From contig VGJO01000001.1 in NCBI GenBank assembly GCA_016867415.1, positions 7,823 to 71,822 on the forward strand: a stretch of DNA of 64,000 bases, given 5' to 3'. The stretch's first letter is position 1, and every line of letters starts with the position of its first letter. The translations under genes and the position numbers were made by a program. This document shows positions 4,879 through 62,631 of this stretch, one piece after another. Origin of the DNA: Candidatus Harrisonbacteria bacterium (GTDB taxonomy: Bacteria > Patescibacteriota > Minisyncoccia > UBA6257 > UBA11618). The notes under the pieces were generated by a model, which saw only the letters and a program-made list of their open reading frames with translations, ran no database searches and had not been told where the DNA came from.

Positions 4879-6153
4879 ATGAAATGGAAGATAATTCTAT
4901 TTAGTGTATTTGGGTTAATAGCAATAACTTTACTCCTCGCATATTTGCAAATAATTCCCGGAATTTTCCGGAAGGACATCGAGCAGATCTCCCTCACCGT
5001 TGTCGGTCCGGAAGATAATCGTGCCATGTATGATGTCATTGATCTCTATCAAGCCGAGCACCCAAACGTAAAAATCACCTACCTTCAAAAAAATCCGGAT
5101 AATTACGAACAAGAGTTGCTAAATCTCCTCGCCTCCGGCGAAAAGGTAGACGCCATGTATTTCAAAAGTTCCTGGCTTTCCAAACATTTCAATAAAATCA
5201 TCCCAGCAAGAGAGGAGGAGATGACCCTTACCCGCTTCGAAAATATTTTCCCTACCGTAGTCCGCCAAGATTTTGCTCCTGACAACTATGTCTTTGGTCT
5301 TCCTCTCTATCTCGATACTCTGGGAGTCATCTACAACAAAAATCTCTTTGACGCCGCAAGTGTCGCCACTCGTCCCAAGACCTGGGTCGATTTCCAAGAT
5401 GCAATTCTCAAAGTCCGTAAACTCGGCAAGAAAAATATGATTGAAGTCGCCGGAGCCGCAATCGGCGGCAATGACACAAATACCCTCCGTGGACCCGAAG
5501 TCCTCCAGACGCTCATGATGCAATCTGGCGCCGTCATGGTAGATCGCGTGGGTGGGGGAGTCACTTTTGATCGCGAAGGTTTGCCCGGACTCAACTTCTA
5601 CCTTTCCTTCACTGACCCAAAAAACACCTACTATACCTGGAACTCAAAAGAGCTCGACGCCCCCACTCTCTTCTCCCAAGGTAAGCTCGGAATGCTCTTT
5701 GGTTACTTTGAAGACTACCGCACCCTCGCCCGCGCCTTCCCAAATATTGAGATAGGTTCTTTTGCCATGCCTCAACCCTTTAATACCGAGAAGCCTCTCA
5801 CTCTTGCTGATTACTATGGTCTCGCCGTCTCCGCCGCCTCCAAAAATCAAGCCGAAGCCTGGAAATTCATCGTCTTTGCCACCACTAATTCCTCCGCCAT
5901 CCAGAGCTACTTAAACGCCACCGGCCACATCCCCGCCCTCCGCGAATACTTGAGTCTCGCCGTCAACAATCCCGAAATGAGTGAGTTCGCTTCCCAAGCT
6001 TTAATAGCCCGAAGTTGGATCCGCCCCGATGACTCTGTCGTCCGCTCCGCCTTCAACAGGCTCATTCAAGAAGCCGGTAGTGGGAGAATTCGCGAAGATC
6101 AAGCCCTCGAACAAGCCGCCTCAACCATCTCCTCCTCCTTCCGCTATCAGTGA
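4879..6153 (+). CDS. Extracellular solute-binding protein (sugar ABC family 1-like), membrane anchored
   Basis: Likely start at MKWKII (4879) with an N-terminal TM; GLPLYLDTLGVIYNKNLF, FSQGKLGM and EAWKFI motifs of SBP_bac_1. Confidence 0.85.
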   Translation: MKWKIILFSVFGLIAITLLLAYLQIIPGIFRKDIEQISLTVVGPEDNRAMYDVIDLYQAEHPNVKITYLQKNPDNYEQELLNLLASGEKVDAMYFKSSWLSKHFNKIIPAREEEMTLTRFENIFPTVVRQDFAPDNYVFGLPLYLDTLGVIYNKNLFDAASVATRPKTWVDFQDAILKVRKLGKKNMIEVAGAAIGGNDTNTLRGPEVLQTLMMQSGAVMVDRVGGGVTFDREGLPGLNFYLSFTDPKNTYYTWNSKELDAPTLFSQGKLGMLFGYFEDYRTLARAFPNIEIGSFAMPQPFNTEKPLTLADYYGLAVSAASKNQAEAWKFIVFATTNSSAIQSYLNATGHIPALREYLSLAVNNPEMSEFASQALIARSWIRPDDSVVRSAFNRLIQEAGSGRIREDQALEQAASTISSSFRYQ

Positions 6154-13955: not shown

Positions 13956-16035
13956 AAAAGTTTTTAAGACTGAATTTGCCGGCCGACCTCTCGAATTTGA
14001 AGTGGGGGAACTCGCTTTTCGCGCCACCAAAGCCGTTCTTGGCCGATACGGTGACACCGAAGTTTTAGTCACCGTCGTGATGGGGGAGTTGGACACTAAT
14101 TTAGATTACATGCCTCTCACCGTAGATTTCGAAGAGCGTTTCTATGCCATCGGCAAGATCCTTGGGAGTCGTTACACTCGCCGCGAAGGAAAATCTTCTG
14201 ATGAAGCTGTCCTCTCCGGCCGGGTCATCGATCGCACCATTCGCCCCCTCTTTGATCAGCGCCTCCGCCGTGAGATCCAAGTCGTCGTCACCACTCTCGC
14301 TCTCGATGGCGAGAATGATCACAATTTTCTTTCTTTAGTAACTGCTTCTCTTGCCCTTCACCTCTCCTCTATTCCTTGGCAAGGACCAGTCGCCGGCGTA
14401 AATCTCGCCGAAGTTGATAACAAAATCCTCGTAAACCCCAAAAATTCAGAAAGCGTCGAAAATACCTTTGAGGGTTTTATCTCTGGTCCCAAAGGCCGGA
14501 TTAATATGATTGAGATCGAAGGCCTAAATGCTCATGAAGAAAAAATCCTCACTGCTTTCAAAGCGGGTCAGGAAGCTATTGATAGCTTGATCGATTTTCA
14601 GGAAAGTATTCGCAAAGAAATCGGCGATAAAAAAATAGATGCCGTACTTGCTTCTTCAAATGCTGATTTGAAAAAAGAAATAAAAGAAAAATTAGGCAAT
14701 GACCTAGAAGCCGCTCTCTTTTTAGGAAAGCGCGACGCAAGCGAAAAGGGAGTAAAAGAGCTTCTTGTAAATCTTATAAAAAGTTATGAAGACAATGGAG
14801 CCGATGAAAAAAGCATAAAAGAACTCTCGCATATTTTCGAAGAACTTTCTGATGAGCTCGTCCACCAAAACGCCTTAGAAAAAAATCTCCGCCCTGATAA
14901 CCGCGGCTTTGAGGAAATCCGCCCTCTAGAGGGGAAAGTCTCCGTCATCAAGCGTGCTCACGGCTCCGCTCTCTTCACGCGCGGCGAGACTCAATCTCTT
15001 GCAGTAGTCACCCTTGCTTCTCCCGACTCCGAAAAAATCGTCGAATCCATTGAAGGCATTCAAAACAAGAGCTTCATGCTTCACTATAATTTTCCGCCAT
15101 ATTCCACGGGTGAAGTCGGTCGGATGCGCGGCCCTGGTCGCCGCGAAATCGGTCATGGCTCTTTAGCCGAAAAAGCTCTCCGCCGCTTAATTCCAAAAAA
15201 AGAGCTCTTCCCATATATCATTCGAATAGTCTCTGAAATCCTTTCTTCCAACGGCTCCTCTTCCATGGCCTCAGTCTGCGCGGGCACGCTCGCGATGATG
15301 GACGCCGGCATTCCTCTTCTTGCTCCCGCCGCCGGTATTGCTATTGGCCTCATGAGTAATGAAAAAGGGGATTATAAGATTTTGACCGACATTCAAGGCG
15401 CAGAGGATCACTATGGAGATATGGACTTCAAAGTTGCCGGCACCGAAACTGGTATTACCGCCATCCAGCTTGATACTAAAGTTTCAGGCATCACTCTTAA
15501 TACCATAAAAGACGCCCTAGAAGCGGGGAAAAAAGCCCGTAAGGAAATTCTCGAAACAATCATCTCAACAATTAGTGCCCCCCGTGCCGCTCTTTCTCCC
15601 TTTGCCCCCTCAGTCTTTTCAGTCTCTATCAATCCCGACAAGATTGGCTTATTGATCGGCCCCGGCGGCAAGACTATTAATAGCATCATTGCCGATACTG
15701 GCATCGATAATATTGATGTGAATCAAGATGGTAAGATCTATGTCTACGCGAGCAACCAAGAAAAAGGCTGGCGCGCCAGAGAACGGATCGAACAACTAAC
15801 GAAAGACTATTCAATAGGCGACATCGTCACTGGCAAAATCGTCCGTATCTTTGAATTCGGCGCTATTCTCGAATTCGCTCCTGGTAAAGACGGTATGATC
15901 CACGTCTCCGAACTCAAAGATGGTTTCGTTAAAAAAGTAGAAGATGTGGTAAAGCTTGGCGAAGAAGTCACGGCCAAAATCGTAAAAATGGAAGGCGACA
16001 AAATCGGCCTCTCCCTCAAAGCCCTCAAAAAGTAG
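13939..16035 (+). CDS. pnp: Polyribonucleotide nucleotidyltransferase
   Basis: RREIGHG, SNGSSSMAS, GDMDFKVAGT, KH (IGPGGKTI) and S1 domains; start taken at MNATT. Confidence 0.97.
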   Translation: MNATTKKVFKTEFAGRPLEFEVGELAFRATKAVLGRYGDTEVLVTVVMGELDTNLDYMPLTVDFEERFYAIGKILGSRYTRREGKSSDEAVLSGRVIDRTIRPLFDQRLRREIQVVVTTLALDGENDHNFLSLVTASLALHLSSIPWQGPVAGVNLAEVDNKILVNPKNSESVENTFEGFISGPKGRINMIEIEGLNAHEEKILTAFKAGQEAIDSLIDFQESIRKEIGDKKIDAVLASSNADLKKEIKEKLGNDLEAALFLGKRDASEKGVKELLVNLIKSYEDNGADEKSIKELSHIFEELSDELVHQNALEKNLRPDNRGFEEIRPLEGKVSVIKRAHGSALFTRGETQSLAVVTLASPDSEKIVESIEGIQNKSFMLHYNFPPYSTGEVGRMRGPGRREIGHGSLAEKALRRLIPKKELFPYIIRIVSEILSSNGSSSMASVCAGTLAMMDAGIPLLAPAAGIAIGLMSNEKGDYKILTDIQGAEDHYGDMDFKVAGTETGITAIQLDTKVSGITLNTIKDALEAGKKARKEILETIISTISAPRAALSPFAPSVFSVSINPDKIGLLIGPGGKTINSIIADTGIDNIDVNQDGKIYVYASNQEKGWRARERIEQLTKDYSIGDIVTGKIVRIFEFGAILEFAPGKDGMIHVSELKDGFVKKVEDVVKLGEEVTAKIVKMEGDKIGLSLKALKK

Positions 16036-16068
16036 ATTGTCATTCCGGAATCTATAATCCTAAATAAA

Positions 16069-16160
16069 AAGGCTGGGACGTGGCACCGGCCCTCCAAAGG
16101 GGTGAATCTCTTTTATAAAAAAGTTGAAGACTTTTTATTCGCCCCTCCACCTCCCCTCTG
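16069..16160 (+). repeat. Family 4 segment preceding a family 2 element
   Basis: GGCCCTCCAAAG(G/A)GGTG(A/G)ATCT...CCCTCCACC shared with 28579-28692. Confidence 0.6.
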
Positions 16161-16200
16161 ATCTCCCTAATATCCCTTTTTCTCTAATAATGCGCTAAGA

Positions 16201-16373
16201 GAAACTTTTTATTTCCCTTGAATGGCTTTCTGGAGGAGAAAAGCATGGTTTTTTCATGATATTATTTTTTTCTTCTTATTCCCCAAAAATAACATCGTGA
16301 AAAATTTTCTCTGAAGCCTAAATAAAAAATTACTGGAGTTTTTATGGGTCATGAAGGGGAAAGAAAAAGTTTC
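16201..16373. repeat. Dispersed ~173-bp element family 2, copy 2
   Basis: Terminal IR GAAACTTTTTATTTCCCTT/AAGGGGAAAGAAAAAGTTTC; same internal layout as copy 1. Confidence 0.85.
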
Positions 16374-16411
16374 TAAAAAAATTTAAATAATATGATAAAA
16401 TAATTACTACT

Positions 16412-17878
16412 ATGGACATGGATCCCAAAAAAAATAATCCTGACCCAAGTTCTTGGGACTCTTTTTTCAAAGAAGGCACTGTTCCGCCGACTTCTCCTGC
16501 CTCTGAATCTCCTAAAGAAATCCTTCCCCAATCTACTGAAACATCCCCACCCTTCAATCCTTTCGCCTCAGTAAATAACACCTCTCAACCTTCTCCTGCT
16601 CCCACCCCTGAGCCCATGAAAGAAACTGCCGCTCCGCCTTCCCGAATTCCTTTTGAAAACAGTAAATTTTTCGATCCTAAGTCTATCTCTTCTACTCCTG
16701 AACCTATTAAACCTATTGAAGAATCTCATTCCGAACCTATCGAAGAAATAAAAATCACTCCTAAAGTTCCAAACGAGCATTCACCCTTCTTTGCTCCCGA
16801 AAATCCTTTCAACTTTCCTAATAGCTCAGTAAATAATCCATTTAAAGACGCTAAAGAAAATCAGCCTAAAGCCCAGAGCATTGAAGCCGGCCTTCCCGAA
16901 ACTCGCAGCCTTCCCGAAATGCAGCTTCGCACCATGAGTTCCGACCTTGCTTCAATAAAAAGCTCCGGCGGCAACCTCCCCGAAGCTCTCATAGTTAGCG
17001 AAAAAGAGCTCGACACTAAAAGCCCTCTTTTCAAACCCGAGACCACCATTCCCCAAAGTCCCGCGAATGACATTTTAGTAGAAAAAAAATCAGGCCTAAG
17101 TCTCCCGATAAAAACCCTCCTAATTTTCCTCGCACTGATCGTCCTAGGTGGTCTCGGCTTTATTATCTACTTCCTCATGAAAGACCTCTTCTTTCCCGAA
17201 ACCTTAGATCTTTCTCCTTCAGTTAATATCGAGCCAAATACTCCCGCAATGACTATTGATCGCATGCCGCCAGAGACAAGAGAGGAGCCGACCATGCTTC
17301 CTCACACCTCCGCCTTTGGCCTCACCCCCGAGTCAAAAGATCTCGCCGTTATTCAGATCAATAATTATAATCTCGTCGACATCCTATCCGCCTTCCAGGG
17401 TAAAGTTAACCTCACTCGCCCCGAAGACACTCTCCAAGAAATTGTCGTTGGTACTCCGGAAGGTCAGGCTATTTTCTCTAAATATTTCCTCACCCTCCTC
17501 CCCGAGCTCCAAGGCGCGCCCTTAAGCGCCGCTCTCGAGACCTACTTCGACAAAGACTTCACTGCCTTCCTCTACTACGAAAAAGGAAAAGCCTATCCAG
17601 GCCTCATCGCCAAAAAACTGCCCAATAGCAACTTCGATCCCGAACTTCTCAAAAATATCGAATCTGCTTCCTTAAAAAATCTCTACCTCGCTCTGCCCAA
17701 GGGAGAGATCAGCCCTTTCAAGGATAGTGTCATCGCTGGCGTCACCACCCGCTATGGAAGTTTCTTCGAAGATCGTCCCGCCGCGGTCAACTACGGTCTC
17801 TTCGGTGATAATCTCATTATCACTACTACCAACAAATCCCTCTTCAAAGTCCTCGATCTCCTCCGCGCCTCCAACTGA
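16412..17878 (+). CDS. Hypothetical membrane protein with Pro-rich disordered N-terminus
   Basis: 488 aa; Pro/Ser-rich first half, 'LRTMSSDL' motif, single TM, globular C-terminal domain. Confidence 0.85.
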   Translation: MDMDPKKNNPDPSSWDSFFKEGTVPPTSPASESPKEILPQSTETSPPFNPFASVNNTSQPSPAPTPEPMKETAAPPSRIPFENSKFFDPKSISSTPEPIKPIEESHSEPIEEIKITPKVPNEHSPFFAPENPFNFPNSSVNNPFKDAKENQPKAQSIEAGLPETRSLPEMQLRTMSSDLASIKSSGGNLPEALIVSEKELDTKSPLFKPETTIPQSPANDILVEKKSGLSLPIKTLLIFLALIVLGGLGFIIYFLMKDLFFPETLDLSPSVNIEPNTPAMTIDRMPPETREEPTMLPHTSAFGLTPESKDLAVIQINNYNLVDILSAFQGKVNLTRPEDTLQEIVVGTPEGQAIFSKYFLTLLPELQGAPLSAALETYFDKDFTAFLYYEKGKAYPGLIAKKLPNSNFDPELLKNIESASLKNLYLALPKGEISPFKDSVIAGVTTRYGSFFEDRPAAVNYGLFGDNLIITTTNKSLFKVLDLLRASN

Positions 17879-17879
17879 T

Positions 17880-17909
17880 TGTCATTCCGGCCTCCGAGCC
17901 GGAATCCAG
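17880..17909 (+). repeat. REP/RPE-like short palindrome (family 3)
   Basis: TGTCATTCCGGCCTCCGAGCCGGAATCCAG. Confidence 0.85.
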
Positions 17910-17940
17910 TACATTTTCTATCAAATTAATTTTAAAAAGA

Positions 17941-17970
17941 AAAAAGCGGCGACCTTACAGCCACCGCTTG
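17941..17970 (-). terminator. Intrinsic terminator of the 18003-18716 gene
   Basis: Minus strand AAGCGGTGGCT-GTA-AGGTCGCCGCTTTTT with G-U pairs and U tract. Confidence 0.75.
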
Positions 17971-18002
17971 TTTGAGATTTTTCCGTCTTCCCGTGATGCG
18001 CC

Positions 18003-18716
18003 TCAGGTCGCGACGGTATCATTAGCTACAGCAGTTGCCGAAGCCACTTCTTCCGTCTCAGCGTCCTGAGCTTCTTTCGCCGCCTTGAGAATATCCCGCC
18101 GTGTGCAAGGCGAAATATGCTCCTTCTTGCGCAATCCTCGCACCTGGGAGACTCGGAGACCAGCGATTTTGGCGATCATCGTGTCCGGCAACTTGCCCAA
18201 GAACGGCCGAATCTTCTTTTCGATATCGACCACCTCCGGAAATCCGTAGATAATCCCAATCGAAGTAAACGCATTCCGAAGCGTCCCGTGATGCACGATG
18301 GTGCTGTGATAGAGCGCCGGATCCTCCCGCCTGAAAGCGTCAGGATCCAACACCTCTTTCCCACGCAATCGAGCGAGCGACTGGCTAGCGCAAAAAAAGG
18401 GCACTTCCATCGCCGACACCAACTCTTGCCACACAAGCTTCGGCGGAAAGCGATGGCCACATCTCGTACAAGTAGTGTTAAGATCGTTCGGATCATCCAC
18501 AAATCCTTTGAGGATCTCGGCCGGCGTCAAAGACCGATTGCATTTGGGACAAAGCGCCTGCGGCCGAAACTTCTCATGACCATGGATAGCGCCCACCAAT
18601 TCCAATCGCATACTGAGCATCTGCGCCTGGCAGAGCATCCGCTGTGCCTGCGTCATCCGCTGTGCCTGCGTCATCCGCTGTTCCATTGAATGGTGCTGAG
18701 AAAAAGTAAGCATCAT
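18003..18716 (-). CDS. Orphan zinc-binding protein with C-terminal HTH-like motif
   Basis: 237 aa; Gln-rich N-terminal repeats (QRMTQA), CPKC...CTRC zinc ligands, 'LGKLPDTMIAKIAGLRVSQVRGLRKKEHI' HTH-like segment; own promoter, GAAGGA RBS and terminator. Confidence 0.85.
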   Translation of the reverse strand: MMLTFSQHHSMEQRMTQAQRMTQAQRMLCQAQMLSMRLELVGAIHGHEKFRPQALCPKCNRSLTPAEILKGFVDDPNDLNTTCTRCGHRFPPKLVWQELVSAMEVPFFCASQSLARLRGKEVLDPDAFRREDPALYHSTIVHHGTLRNAFTSIGIIYGFPEVVDIEKKIRPFLGKLPDTMIAKIAGLRVSQVRGLRKKEHISPCTRRDILKAAKEAQDAETEEVASATAVANDTVAT

Positions 18717-18788
18717 AATTCAAATTCCTTCACAAAGAAGAAGAGGGGAGAAACCAACTTTTCAAAGTCCTTTCAGACTAACACACCT

Positions 18789-18817
18789 GTTATAGCACAC
18801 TAAAAATCCAATGTCAA
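18789..18817 (-). promoter_or_regulatory. sigma70 promoter for the zinc-binding protein
   Basis: Minus strand TTGACA-N17-TATAAC with extended TG; followed by boxA-like GGACTTTGAAAA (18770-18759). Confidence 0.8.
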
Positions 18818-18860
18818 TATTTTGTCAACTTGACAAAAATAGATAAAAACCAATAGGGTA

Positions 18861-18888
18861 TTGACATAGGCTGTGGATATGCTATAAT
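18861..18888 (+). promoter_or_regulatory. sigma70 promoter for the large ncRNA candidate
   Basis: TTGACA-N16-TATAAT with extended TG; both hexamers perfect. Confidence 0.85.
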
Positions 18889-18894
18889 AGTTTT

Positions 18895-19499
18895 AGAACT
18901 TAGAAATAAGACGCTTCTTACCTAATCCTAAAAAGCTTTCGCAGATCTACTCTTGAGATCTTTTTAGGATTAGGTAAGTTAGCGTAAAGACGAATGCTTG
19001 CTTTCCTGAATCTTTTCTTGAACCTACTTGTCACTGGTATTAGGCAACCGTTCTGGATAAGTCGATGAACTTATTCTCCCTGAGCGCGTCTCAGGCAAGA
19101 GAATACCCGTTCGCGGGGTACGGTGAAGACCATCTGTTCGGTTATAAGCTCCGCCAGGACCGACTGGTTAAGCGACAAGGCTTGAGGAAACTCGTACGCT
19201 ACTTGAATATTCTTTTTGTAAGTGGAACCGGTTTCACTTCAAAAAGGAGAGGTCAAGCAAAGCGCGGGTACAGCCGTTCTCCCCAGCAGGGTACAGAACG
19301 TACAAAGAAGTGGGAATCCTCAGAGAAAAATGCAGATCCCTCTGGATCTGCTAATACTCAATCCACTTTCAAAGGTGTGAAAGCACCATCCCAAAAGCTC
19401 ATCACGTGAGAGCATGGGAAAAGGGCACTGCCAAGCGTCGTCTTCTAGCGAAAGCTAGGCGAGCCGGTTTTGTGGGTAATCCCCAAAACCGGTTTTTTT
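18895..19499 (+). ncRNA. Candidate large (~600 nt) structured non-coding RNA
   Basis: Promoter and terminator bracket more than 12 helices with GNRA/UUCG loops and a long-range closing helix (18987-19000/19432-19444); the only ORF is internal and implausible. Confidence 0.75.
19463..19499 (+). terminator. Intrinsic terminator of the ncRNA candidate
   Basis: GCCGGTTTTGTGGG-TAAT-CCCCAAAACCGGT-TTTTTT. Confidence 0.8.
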
Positions 19500-19563
19500 A
19501 TACTTAATTTTGTACAAAAATTATTTCAAGAAAAATATTCAAGTTCAACGTTGCGTTACGCCA

Positions 19564-19682
19564 AGCGCAGGATTTTTTCTTCAGGGCTAGGAGAAAGCGA
19601 GGCTTGCGAGGAAGCATACGTAAGCTGTATGTTGACGAGCAAACGGAGCTTTCGACAACGCCCTGGAGGAAAAAGACAAGCT
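19564..19682 (+). repeat. Dispersed hairpin element family 1 (subtype b), copy E
   Basis: AGCGCAGGATTTTTTCTTCAGGGC...GAGGAAGCATAC-loop-GTATGTTGACGAGC...GCCCTGGAGGAAAAAGACAAGC. Confidence 0.8.
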
Positions 19683-19684
19683 CA

Positions 19685-21700
19685 TCAATCTTTCTTATCA
19701 GCAGCCTTTCGGGGATCGGTCCACGTCGCATTGTCACATTGCGGATATCTACTACATCCAAAAAATAACCTCCTCCCTTTCTTCGTAAATCTCTTCATCA
19801 TCTCTCCCTCCCCGCACTTATCACACTTCACTCCCGTACTCCTATTATCTGCCTCCGGCTCAATCACCGCTCCCGATTCAGTTTTTACTTCTCCAGTAAT
19901 CTTCTTCGCATTCTTGCACTCCGGAAATCCTGAGCACGCTAAAAATTTTCCATACCGCCCCGCACGCACCACCATTTTTTTCCCGCACTTATCACAAATC
20001 TCATTTGTCTCAATTGGCTCCGGCCGCTCTGCCCGCGCTACCGACTCATACTTTTCCGCTAGATTCTTCGCAAACGGATCATAAAAATCTTTCAGGAGTT
20101 TTTTCCAAGCAATCTTTTTCTCCGCGACGTCATCCAAACCTTCCTCCATCCCTGCTGTAAAACCGACATCCACTATAGTCGGGAAGTGTTCTTCAAGAAG
20201 CGTTGTTACTTTTTCCCCGATCTCCGTCGGGTGAAATCGCCGCTCAATCTTCTCCACGTAGCCTCGCGCCTCAATCGTGCTGATCGTCGGCGCATAGGTC
20301 GACGGTCGCCCCACCCCATTCTCTTCCAAAGCTTTAATAAGAGTCGCTTCACTGTAGCGCGCCGCCGGCTCGGTGAAGTGTTCCTCATACTTCACTTCCT
20401 TTACATCCATCTCCTCCTTTTCTTCCAAAGTTGGCAAAATTACATCCTCTGTCTTTGATGGGTATACCTTAAGAAATCCCGGGAAAAGCATCTGGCTCCC
20501 AGTCGTCTTCAAGATGTGCGGCCCCGCCTCAAAAAGAATCGTCATCTGGTTAAATCGGGCCGGCGGCATCTGTGACGCCAAAAACCTCTTACTAATAAGG
20601 TCATACACCTTCCGCATCGAAGGCTCAAGCGCCTCAATATCCGCCGCGCTCCGATTGAGATGCGTCGGCCGGATCGCCTCGTGCGCTTCCTGCGCCCCTT
20701 TTGACTTCGTCGCGAATCGCCGCGGCGCGTCAGCCGCATACTCCGCTCCCAACTCTTTTTCTAAATATTCCTTCGCCATTGAAAGCGCTTCCGAGGCGAT
20801 ATTTACCGAGTCCGTTCTCATGTAAGTGATCCAACCATTTTCATACAACTTCTGCGCCGCAAACATTGTCTTCTTTGCCGCGTAGCCGAGCTTATTCGCC
20901 GCTGTCTGCGTAAGCGTGCTCGTAGTAAAAGGCGGTGACGGATGCCGTTTCACCTCTTTTTGGGTAATTTCTTTGACTCGTACCGTCGCCACCTTGATAT
21001 CGTCTACAATTTTCTTAGCCGCCGCTTCATCCTGCAGCTCCAGTCGATCCACCTGCTTTCCATACGCTGAAAAAAGCTCCGCAAGGCACGTTGCGGCCGG
21101 ATCTGTCTTCTTCGTAAGCTCCGCCACCACCGAAAAATATCTCGTCGGCACAAACGCCCGAATCTCCCGCTCCCGATCCACAATCAGCCGAAGAGTTACC
21201 GACTGCACCCGTCCCGCCGAGAGTCCTCGCGCCACCTTCTGCCATAAAAACGGCGAGAGTTTATATCCCACGATTCTATCCAAAATTCTTCGGGCTTGCT
21301 GAGCATCTACAAGGCTCATATCGATCCGCCGTGGCGACTTGAGCGCCTCCTGGATCGCTCGCTCCGTGATCTCATGAAAGACAATTCTCTCCGTCTTCTC
21401 TGCATCCAAGCCTAAAGCCGCGGCAAGATGCCAGGCAATCGCTTCTCCCTCTCGGTCTTCGTCAGTGGCAAGCACTACCGCGTCCGCTTTACCCGCCTCT
21501 TTTTTGAGCTTCTTCACCGTCTCTCGCGCTTTAGCTGGAATCATGTACTTCGGCTCAAAATCATTCTCAAGATCCACCCCGATTTTTGACTTTGGTAAAT
21601 CCCGAATGTGGCCAAAAGACGACAAGAGTTCATACCCCTTACCTAAAAATTTTCCGATCGTCTTTGCCTTTGTCGGACTCTCTACAATAATAAGTTTCAT
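19685..21700 (-). CDS. topA: DNA topoisomerase I
   Basis: IVESPTKAKTI, ATDEDREGEAIAWH, SAGRVQS, ITYMRTDS, two C-terminal zinc ribbons. Confidence 0.98.
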   Translation of the reverse strand: MKLIIVESPTKAKTIGKFLGKGYELLSSFGHIRDLPKSKIGVDLENDFEPKYMIPAKARETVKKLKKEAGKADAVVLATDEDREGEAIAWHLAAALGLDAEKTERIVFHEITERAIQEALKSPRRIDMSLVDAQQARRILDRIVGYKLSPFLWQKVARGLSAGRVQSVTLRLIVDREREIRAFVPTRYFSVVAELTKKTDPAATCLAELFSAYGKQVDRLELQDEAAAKKIVDDIKVATVRVKEITQKEVKRHPSPPFTTSTLTQTAANKLGYAAKKTMFAAQKLYENGWITYMRTDSVNIASEALSMAKEYLEKELGAEYAADAPRRFATKSKGAQEAHEAIRPTHLNRSAADIEALEPSMRKVYDLISKRFLASQMPPARFNQMTILFEAGPHILKTTGSQMLFPGFLKVYPSKTEDVILPTLEEKEEMDVKEVKYEEHFTEPAARYSEATLIKALEENGVGRPSTYAPTISTIEARGYVEKIERRFHPTEIGEKVTTLLEEHFPTIVDVGFTAGMEEGLDDVAEKKIAWKKLLKDFYDPFAKNLAEKYESVARAERPEPIETNEICDKCGKKMVVRAGRYGKFLACSGFPECKNAKKITGEVKTESGAVIEPEADNRSTGVKCDKCGEGEMMKRFTKKGRRLFFGCSRYPQCDNATWTDPRKAADKKD

Positions 21701-21794
21701 CGTGAAAATAAAAACAAAACAATTTCCTTCTATAGTAACATTCAGAGATTTTACCTACTCCAAAATAAATGCAGGATCTACAAAGATAAAAATC

Positions 21795-22679
21795 TTAGCG
21801 AACAAGATTATAGCCATTTCTCCCCTCAAAAACCTGATCATTAAGTATAAACTTTGATAAAATAACGCTAACTGAATGAGCCTCTAGTTTAGTAATTTCG
21901 CAAATTTTGTCAATCGATATATCATCCGAACTCTCCGAAAGGATAGTAAACACCAATCTCTCTTCCGGCGTAAAAAGCTCCAATTGTTTCGCATTCACCC
22001 CCTTCTTTTCCTTTTCTTTATCCGGCTTCACAATCCCTAAGCACTCCAGTATTTGAGTAGGGGAAAGGGCTACCTGCGCCCCATCCCGAATAAGCATATT
22101 TGACCCTTCGTAATTCCGATCAAAGATCTTCCCCGGCACCACAAAGACATCCAGCCCTATTTGCAAAGCATGGCTCGCCGTATTGAGCGCCCCTGACGCC
22201 TTCGGCGCTTCTATCACAATCACCGCCCGAGAGATCCCAGCCACGATCCGATTCCGTTCCAAGAAAGAATACACTCGAGCCGACTCCTTCGCCTCATACT
22301 CCGAAAGGGCCAAACCACCTCCTTTTACTATCTCTTGATAAAGCCGAAGATTTTCCTTGGGATATACATTGGAAAGACCACTAGGCAAAACCGCAATTGT
22401 TTTTCCCGAAGCCATAAGCGCCGCCCGATGCGCCGCCGCATCCACGCCATAAGCAAGGCCAGAAACGATCGTGATTCCCGCCTCAGCGAGCGTCCGCGAA
22501 AACCACTCCGTCGCCTTAAGCCCATACTCCGAGACCCGCCTCGTCCCCACGATCGCTACCCGGATTTCTTGCGGGGATAGCAATTCCACATTCCCTTCAA
22601 AACTCATTTTCCGCAATAGCGGAGTGATAATATCAAAGGCCGCCTCCTTAGAAATATCCCGCTTGCTTTCGTCAACCAT
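21795..22679 (-). CDS. dprA: DNA-processing protein DprA
   Basis: VAIVGTR, IVSGLAYGVDAAAH, ERNRIVAG, SGALNTA; C-terminal winged helix; short N-terminus. Confidence 0.95.
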   Translation of the reverse strand: MVDESKRDISKEAAFDIITPLLRKMSFEGNVELLSPQEIRVAIVGTRRVSEYGLKATEWFSRTLAEAGITIVSGLAYGVDAAAHRAALMASGKTIAVLPSGLSNVYPKENLRLYQEIVKGGGLALSEYEAKESARVYSFLERNRIVAGISRAVIVIEAPKASGALNTASHALQIGLDVFVVPGKIFDRNYEGSNMLIRDGAQVALSPTQILECLGIVKPDKEKEKKGVNAKQLELFTPEERLVFTILSESSDDISIDKICEITKLEAHSVSVILSKFILNDQVFEGRNGYNLVR

Positions 22680-62025: not shown

Positions 62026-62631
62026 ATGCCTTCTACCAAAGGTCTCCCATCTCTCAAAAAAGTAATTCGGGAAGTGAATCGCAGTAAATATAAGATCTGT
62101 GTCTCCGGTGCCGCGGAGACTGGTCACTGCAGCGCCGAAGCCTTAAAAAATGCTGAGCTTATTGGTCGAGAGATTGCCAAAGCCGGTATTGTCTTAGTGA
62201 CCGGCGCCACCACTGGCACCCCTTATTGGGCTGCCAAAGGTGCTAAAAGCGAAGGTGGATTTGTTGTTGGTATTTCTCCAGCCACCTCCGAAGCCGCCCA
62301 TATCAAGTCTTACCGCCTTCCTATCGACTACCATGATATGATTATCTATACTGGTTTTGATTACTCCGGTCGCAATCTCCTTCTTACTCGTTCCGCCGAC
62401 GCCATCATCACGATCTGCGGTCGCGTAGGCACGCTCAATGAATTCACTATCGGCTTTGAAGATAATAAACCCGCTGGCGTCTTAGAAGGTTCTGGTGGCG
62501 CCGCCGATCATATTCAGTCCTGGCTGAAAGAGCTCCATCGAGGATTAGGTAAGACCGTTTTTTCTAGTGATCCAAAAGAGCTTCTTCGTTTAGTGATTGG
62601 GATGATTGATGAAGAAAAAATCCGAGAGTAA
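62026..62631 (+). CDS. LOG/SLOG family Rossmann-fold protein
   Basis: LVTGATTG, GRNLLL, GRVGTLNEF. Confidence 0.85.
   Translation: MPSTKGLPSLKKVIREVNRSKYKICVSGAAETGHCSAEALKNAELIGREIAKAGIVLVTGATTGTPYWAAKGAKSEGGFVVGISPATSEAAHIKSYRLPIDYHDMIIYTGFDYSGRNLLLTRSADAIITICGRVGTLNEFTIGFEDNKPAGVLEGSGGAADHIQSWLKELHRGLGKTVFSSDPKELLRLVIGMIDEEKIRE

Follow-up and report, generated by a model that had tools for sequence, protein, structure and literature searches.

The window, the whole 64,000-nt stretch of DNA analysed here, comes from a 631 kb genome (G000; 99.85% complete), and coordinates are window positions unless a genome is named. Both this genome size and a 16S rRNA tail that lacks CCUCC are in keeping with a CPR bacterium. 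On the reverse strand, 18003-18716 encodes a 237-aa protein of no known family that starts with a Gln-rich segment and contains two CxxC pairs; we found for it no Pfam domain, 7 homologues in the protein set and no structural match over TM 0.5. Diverging from this gene, a unit of about 600 nt runs on the forward strand from a promoter at 18861-18888 to a terminator at 19461-19499. A dispersed intergenic repeat that is not part of the RNA (19541-19681; 13 other matches in G000, and matches also in other lake contigs) separates the terminator from topA, which is convergent. Positions 18789-18836 contain the promoter of the 237-aa gene, back to back with that of the RNA, and a palindrome of 15 bp (18822-18836); the palindrome is absent upstream of a homologous copy of the RNA in another genome, G007. 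A short palindromic repeat at 17876-17915, with 9 other matches in G000, follows a 488-aa gene.

Architecture of the RNA unit

The original prediction read this stretch as a free-standing, ornate RNA gene, and each motif it named was found in place or within a few bases. The sigma-70-type promoter (TTGACA-16-TATAAT with an extended -10 TG) scores 12/12 and is the sole perfect one among 8 sites in 16000-22000; TTGACA and TGCTATAAT occupy the corresponding positions in G007. At the other end, the intrinsic terminator consists of a hairpin at 19461-19495 (pairing probability 0.97) and a U7 tail at 19493-19499, with a counterpart at G007 2011-2040; a pattern scan of 16000-22000 contained no entry for the window's terminator. 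The near-continuous helices proposed between the two are borne out by folding energy: the RNA stretch 18895-19500 folds at -228 kcal/mol compared with -165.8 ± 6.0 for 20 dinucleotide shuffles (z -10.5), with about 70% of bases paired in the predicted fold. After removal of the 5' hairpin and terminator, the core (18986-19445) retained a z of -4.5, and 0 of 100 shuffles folded equally well. Among non-overlapping 600-nt windows of the genome, the RNA ranks seventh by folding; the six above it are tRNA genes or repeat-like hairpin blocks (four of the six were read and two judged from tRNA coordinates).

Folding was compared between strands at both copies. The window copy reached -228 on the forward strand and -207 on the reverse strand, with 8 and 2 confident G-U pairs, respectively; the values for the G007 copy were -252 and -180, with 23 and 4. 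RNase P RNA of G000 shows the same forward-strand preference with more G-U pairs. Because both copies fold better and form more confident G-U pairs on the forward strand, selection appears to act on one strand, as on an RNA and not a DNA cruciform. A MITE- or REP-like repeat was considered and rejected, the RNA stretch being single-copy in G000 and folding preferentially as forward-strand RNA. Nor is the unit the leader of anything, since its flanks are the divergent 237-aa gene and, past the dispersed repeat, convergent topA. At both copies a terminator is present and a same-strand downstream gene is absent; downstream of the G007 copy lie a gap and metG.

Transcription would start, judging from the -10 box, at the head of an A/U-rich leader (AGAACTT; 18895-18910). 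The same leader precedes protein genes in genomes G001, G005, G010 and G028, and it is a generic opening of promoter-driven cassettes in the group, not RNA-specific. As strong promoters with this leader drive small accessory protein genes here, the RNA rides in an ordinary cassette format. Across the family, many cassettes for accessory proteins in variable slots begin with a consensus promoter and AGAACTT (for example, L066 849-900, L217, L218 and L207), the leader possibly being a boxA-like signal.

A long hairpin of about 30 bp follows (18911-18985), outside the closed core in the predicted fold. It may be a site for RNase III, which is encoded in both G000 and G007, or a guard for the 5' end. 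Its base belongs to the most conserved block of the RNA (18973-19008), together with the 5' strand of the closing helix and a 13-mer (18996-19008) that is invariant between the copies. The long-range closing helix of the original prediction (18987/19432) holds up: P1 pairs 18987-19000 with 19432-19444 around a multi-arm core spanning 18987-19444 (predicted p 0.83-0.87), and its counterpart in G007 pairs 1519-1530 with 1955-1966 (p 0.86-0.88). Within P1, domain A (19009-19189) is predicted to be a long branched rod, and its sequence changes fast. Hairpins B (19190-19269) and C (19275-19300) come next; in G007, B is much shorter and C similar.

The conserved 3' core (19301-19432) contains a UACAAA linker, domain D (19307-19369), hairpins E (19374-19387) and F (19389-19419), and a small hairpin (19424-19432), all on the forward strand. 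Positions 19182-19188 could form a 7-bp pseudoknot with an internal loop at 19317-19323 in both copies, a pairing that we offer as a hypothesis only, with two stronger rival partners available in G007. The tip of hairpin F is self-complementary in both copies with a different sequence in each; a self-complementary 4-nt loop arises by chance in about 1 in 16 hairpins, and several were inspected. A post-core hairpin (19444-19459), replaced by a longer one at the same place in G007, precedes the terminator.

Some of the finer structure originally proposed fared less well. The letters of the CTTGTC/GACAAG helix are present, but its pairing probability is only about 0.2 and the helix is lost in a lake allele. 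GAG-GAAA-CTC occurs in the sequence but is absent from the predicted fold, and the GNRA and UUCG loops, present in the window, do not recur at matching places in G007.

A distant homologue and a lake allele

BLAST of the window DNA against 61 relatives returned 2 genomes, G000 itself and G007, which belongs to the same family and another genus; the single match elsewhere was 40 nt long and at another locus. The G007 copy folds with a z of -9.9 and repeats the layout of the window copy. Its promoter elements, TTGACA and TGCTATAAT, are followed by a long 5' hairpin and then by the closing helix, inside which come a long rod, a pair of hairpins, a domain whose internal loop is asymmetric and a further three hairpins; after the closing strand there is one more hairpin, then the terminator. 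Beyond the first 120 nt, alignment of the two sequences scores -263, which does not surpass the best of 30 shuffles (-255; mean -304).

A covariance model built from the window 3' core alone nevertheless matched the G007 core, the part that had not been used to find G007, with a weak score of 16.8 bits (E 0.006 in 53 kb). In the resulting core alignment, all 29 comparable pairs are standard in both copies, 13 of them through double and 3 through single changes, whereas slid controls were 35-54% paired; these counts are support and not statistics, coming from two rows fitted to the window structure via a model built on the window copy. With only two full copies, covariation lacks statistical power. 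In the 5' hairpin, aligned by sequence only, 47 of 48 cells are paired, and its 24 pairs include 6 double and 4 single changes. As the original prediction anticipated for a structured RNA, the homologue thus keeps its helices through compensating changes. What the two distant copies preserve is the fold, rather than the sequence or a reading frame.

A third, partial allele was recovered on one contig from a lake metagenome DNA run (X5), covering 18998-19203 at a depth of 12.5 against 19.7. It differs from the window by 18 substitutions and 7 one-base indels. Nine of the substitutions fall on predicted unpaired bases, two leave G-U pairs and one breaks a weak helix; the remaining six lie in three short helices that also bear indels, where hand reading suggests that pairing is re-formed in a shifted register. 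The invariant 13-mer is untouched from 18998 on, as are rod helices at 19021-24, 19034-38, 19043-50, 19055-58 and 19122-24. The CTTGTC/GACAAG helix is the one lost, its 5' strand changed at four places and its 3' strand unchanged.

The forward strand also carries an open reading frame of 114 codons (19065-19409). It is called as a gene in public sets, and other perfect promoters in G000 drive small proteins, so that, like the genome's other strong-promoter cassettes, the unit could be read as an mRNA, here with long structured UTRs around the frame of a 114-aa protein. However, the predicted protein has no Pfam domain and matches only itself among 5.8 billion proteins, G007 has no counterpart (its longest forward-strand frame there is 43 aa), and in the X5 allele the frame meets a stop codon at 19173 and is scrambled over 19086-19121. 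Going by these sequence comparisons, the ORF is most likely not a gene; the mRNA reading is largely refuted, and we give it almost no credence.

Comparison with known RNA families

An Rfam scan of the window returned two tRNAs only, and at E up to 10 both copies of the RNA gave only chance-level hairpin matches. We consider it very likely that the unit is a stand-alone structured ncRNA gene of ~600 nt whose family is not in Rfam. The literature describes no such RNA in CPR bacteria as far as we found, and the supplementary motif lists of large surveys (PMC8040213, PMC8632094) may hold an unnamed candidate.

The absence of RNase P, tmRNA and intron signatures, noted at the outset, was confirmed on each count. 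The RNase P motif GAGGAAAGTCC (P4 pseudoknot motifs) is not present in the RNA stretch, and the genome's own RNase P RNA lies at G000:C2:51917-52306 (64 bits, below cut-off but full length). No tmRNA match, with tRNA-like ends and a tag frame, was found at the locus, and the tmRNA gene is at G000:C1:75815-76196. G000 yielded no match to 6S or large SRP RNA, which leaves a place for a very diverged housekeeping RNA (SRP, 6S, or a second RNase P or tmRNA). Against such an RNA stand the RNase P and tmRNA genes just named, the lack of any SRP54 match over cut-off, a size three times that of 6S, and a search of 567 kb of G001 and 401 kb of G005, in which two models and a model-free screen that recovered RNase P found no counterpart; we regard this reading as highly improbable.

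Group I and group II introns had no Rfam match at either copy, the promoter-to-terminator unit has no exons, and a reverse transcriptase domain (RVT_1) was not found in G000 or G007. Omega and HEARO guide RNAs of IscB and TnpB had no Rfam match at either copy, and neither copy adjoins a nuclease gene, although a nuclease could be encoded elsewhere in the genome. A ribozyme of a new class, with invariant linkers and pseudoknot as its catalytic core, would suit the large size of the RNA, the candidate pseudoknot present in both copies and the single-stranded motifs, short and invariant, that both have around a multi-arm junction. Such a ribozyme seems distinctly unlikely: signatures of group I, group II and RNase P are absent, there are no exons or substrate, and in two copies invariance is indistinguishable from slow change.

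The CsrB/RsmZ-type sponges are likewise multi-hairpin stand-alone RNAs, and CsrA is encoded in G000. A base-pairing or protein-sponge regulator (a large, CsrB-like sRNA whose seed would be the invariant, pyrimidine-rich 13-mer) therefore deserves consideration; CsrA occurs in 10 of 16 family genomes compared with 1 of 44 other genomes of the order. However, GGA motifs are neither enriched nor exposed in the RNA, with counts at chance level (9 against 10.4 and 13 against 16.1) and all but 1 of the 22 in predicted stems, and no CsrA match was found in G007 (89% complete). For base pairing, no complement longer than 14 nt exists elsewhere in G000, and about 70% of the bases are already paired. 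We judge a regulator of either kind to be quite improbable. An anti-Shine-Dalgarno-like role for the 13-mer is also doubtful because the 16S rRNA 3' tail (G000:C1, about 177.2 kb, reverse strand) is without CCUCC. Two further observations concern CsrA itself: G000:C2:49323-49655 encodes two CsrA domains in one 145-aa frame, and in G005, which has two CsrA matches, a GGA-rich intergenic stretch precedes a terminator (L334 about 5200-5400; G005:C8) and is, from its sequence, a CsrB-like candidate.

The original prediction placed the RNA in the size class of OLE, ROOL and GOLLD and suggested that it might be new, which the lack of an Rfam family and the helices kept in G007 support. OLE RNA (presumably Rfam RF01071) has its ends joined by a closing helix, and oapA lies directly downstream of it. 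The window RNA resembles OLE in its length of about 600 nt, its closing helix and its own promoter, and differs in matching no OLE model, in having no same-strand partner gene downstream (only the repeat and convergent topA) and in sequence, which is highly conserved in OLE.

ROOL RNA (Rfam RF03087) is also a stand-alone gene of ~600 nt with many helices, patchy among close relatives and, according to the passages of PMC12286853 and PMC5643018 that describe it, with no evident protein partner. It is reported in 34 of 45 L. salivarius genomes as abundant, with no clear function in the knockout that PMC5643018 presents. Neither copy of our RNA matched the ROOL model at E up to 10; a separate ROOL model search also gave no match, a weak result alone in that its control matched nowhere either. 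With GOLLD RNA (Rfam RF02032) the window RNA shares a variable 5' part, a better kept 3' core and a lake habitat. It is shorter, however, and without a match at the locus, the best hits to the GOLLD model of the conserved 3' region being 7-10 bits elsewhere in the genomes against a cut-off of 150. Phage or prophage locations, often near tRNA islands, are given for ROOL and GOLLD in PMC12286853. By contrast, our RNA sits in a chromosomal slot with no tRNA island (the nearest tRNA is 4.3 kb away), both copies have housekeeping neighbours, and no phage copy was found.

Distribution and proposed mode of action

The full RNA gene was found in 2 of 401 genomes of the order (G000 and G007). In 15 relatives, the slot behind topA is either empty or occupied by other genes; in G005 and G010 the upstream gene extends straight up to topA. 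The permease-metG slot, which houses the RNA in G007, is without it in 14 other genomes including G000 (G012 and G016 were omitted as their contigs end there; in G012, a genus-mate of G007, an assembly gap spans the slot). Both slots hold different cassettes in other members of the family. In a near-identical strain (run X12), a single contig passes from 18883 to 19687 by way of 712 other letters instead of 803; these may be a very diverged allele or a different cassette. A unit at the topA slot of G001 looked homologous by its promoter and leader and proved to be a protein gene. The 237-aa protein was likewise rejected as a partner of the RNA: it was not found in G007, and the 2 of 200 other genomes that have it show no RNA beside it.

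Wider searches, of limited sensitivity, added no copy. A 17-nt motif with one mismatch allowed matched 6 of the 401 order genomes, the four inexact matches lacking the rest of the RNA, and short motifs searched in the family found nothing further. Model R1 matched 2 of 150 genomes, again with no further copy, and model R3, insensitive enough to miss the window's own copy, 1 of 40. G007 DNA matched 6 of 401 class genomes, five by short chance matches (three read, all five scored with R3), and 13 of 401 order genomes, 11 of them by short matches that R3 did not score. Exact patterns gave 1 match in metagenome contigs and 37 in genome contigs, of which 1 was real, both times the G007 sequence again. 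Six pattern scans of viral contigs (32, 0, 8, 27, 37 and 73 matches; two scans judged by eye only) contained none that was real, phage and plasmid BLAST found no copy, and 14-nt matches of the 5' hairpin near 62541 and 63570 were at chance level (E 1.2).

The RNA gene is thus an accessory, exchangeable cassette and not a fixed housekeeping RNA, in a family that is very small so far; bracketed by a near-ideal promoter and a terminator, it comes and goes in variable intergenic slots. Two loci in two genomes, slots that are empty or otherwise filled in relatives, and replacement in the X12 strain could also reflect a selfish or mobile RNA element, either a non-autonomous cassette or what is left of an RNA-guided element or retro-element; its fold would aid its own spread, with protein supplied in trans. 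The RNA is single-copy in G000, however; neither genome yielded a reverse transcriptase domain, and genes for a nuclease or transposase adjoin neither copy. Ordinary protein cassettes built on the same promoter and leader also come and go in these slots. A selfish element is rather unlikely.

Its closed multi-arm core, patchy presence and lack of a partner gene place the RNA nearest to ROOL and GOLLD in type, and its slot exchange, like its patchiness, resembles that of ROOL. By this analogy, if the unit is a structured ncRNA gene, the odds that it acts as a scaffold are about even. Our leading explanation, which falls just short of an even chance overall, is that the RNA represents a new family of large scaffold RNAs, abundant and acting in trans, which would work like ROOL and GOLLD without belonging to either. 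Counting against it, no phage or plasmid copy and no adjoining tRNA was found, unlike for ROOL and GOLLD, and the tetraloops are unconserved between the copies. ROOL and GOLLD are described as abundant RNAs that the cell can do without and that form RNA-only cages (PMC12286853; PMC5643018), and self-complementary loops of the kind seen at the tip of hairpin F join chains in OLE and GOLLD according to PMC12286853.

In the scaffold model, the housekeeping sigma factor would make the RNA in large amounts, and the 5' hairpin would guard the 5' end or be trimmed off. The closing helix would hold a core of six to seven arms, which the short invariant linkers and candidate pseudoknot may pack in three dimensions. 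The RNA would then act in trans as a stable scaffold, either singly or, like ROOL and GOLLD, in multimers that assemble themselves. It would bind or shelter some partner during stress or phage attack and be of use without being essential. An unlikely but broader proposal is a new class of RNA machine that needs no protein, either a ribozyme or a self-assembling particle, built around a pseudoknotted core. It would be carried on a self-contained promoter-RNA-terminator cassette that passes among ultra-small bacteria, and it might be one branch of a CPR-wide superfamily that keeps its fold but no searchable sequence.

What is new here is an RNA family that matches no catalogued family, the kind of RNA being already known; what the window RNA does is a hypothesis. 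To our knowledge, only a handful of bacterial RNA classes are so large and folded, and those recently solved are RNA-only cages. A new RNA family in 0.6 Mb genomes, where little unused is kept, is a direct candidate for cryo-EM and probing, for which two natural copies that share a fold but are unrelated in sequence are ideally suited. Even inside a single family, such RNAs can drift until sequence search no longer finds them, so CPR genomes may hide many more. Elsewhere in G000, long hairpin blocks that share words (G000:C2:158521-159120, C2:45841-46440, C8:6841-7440, C1:157201-157800 and C5:26161-26760) are a second repeat-like family.
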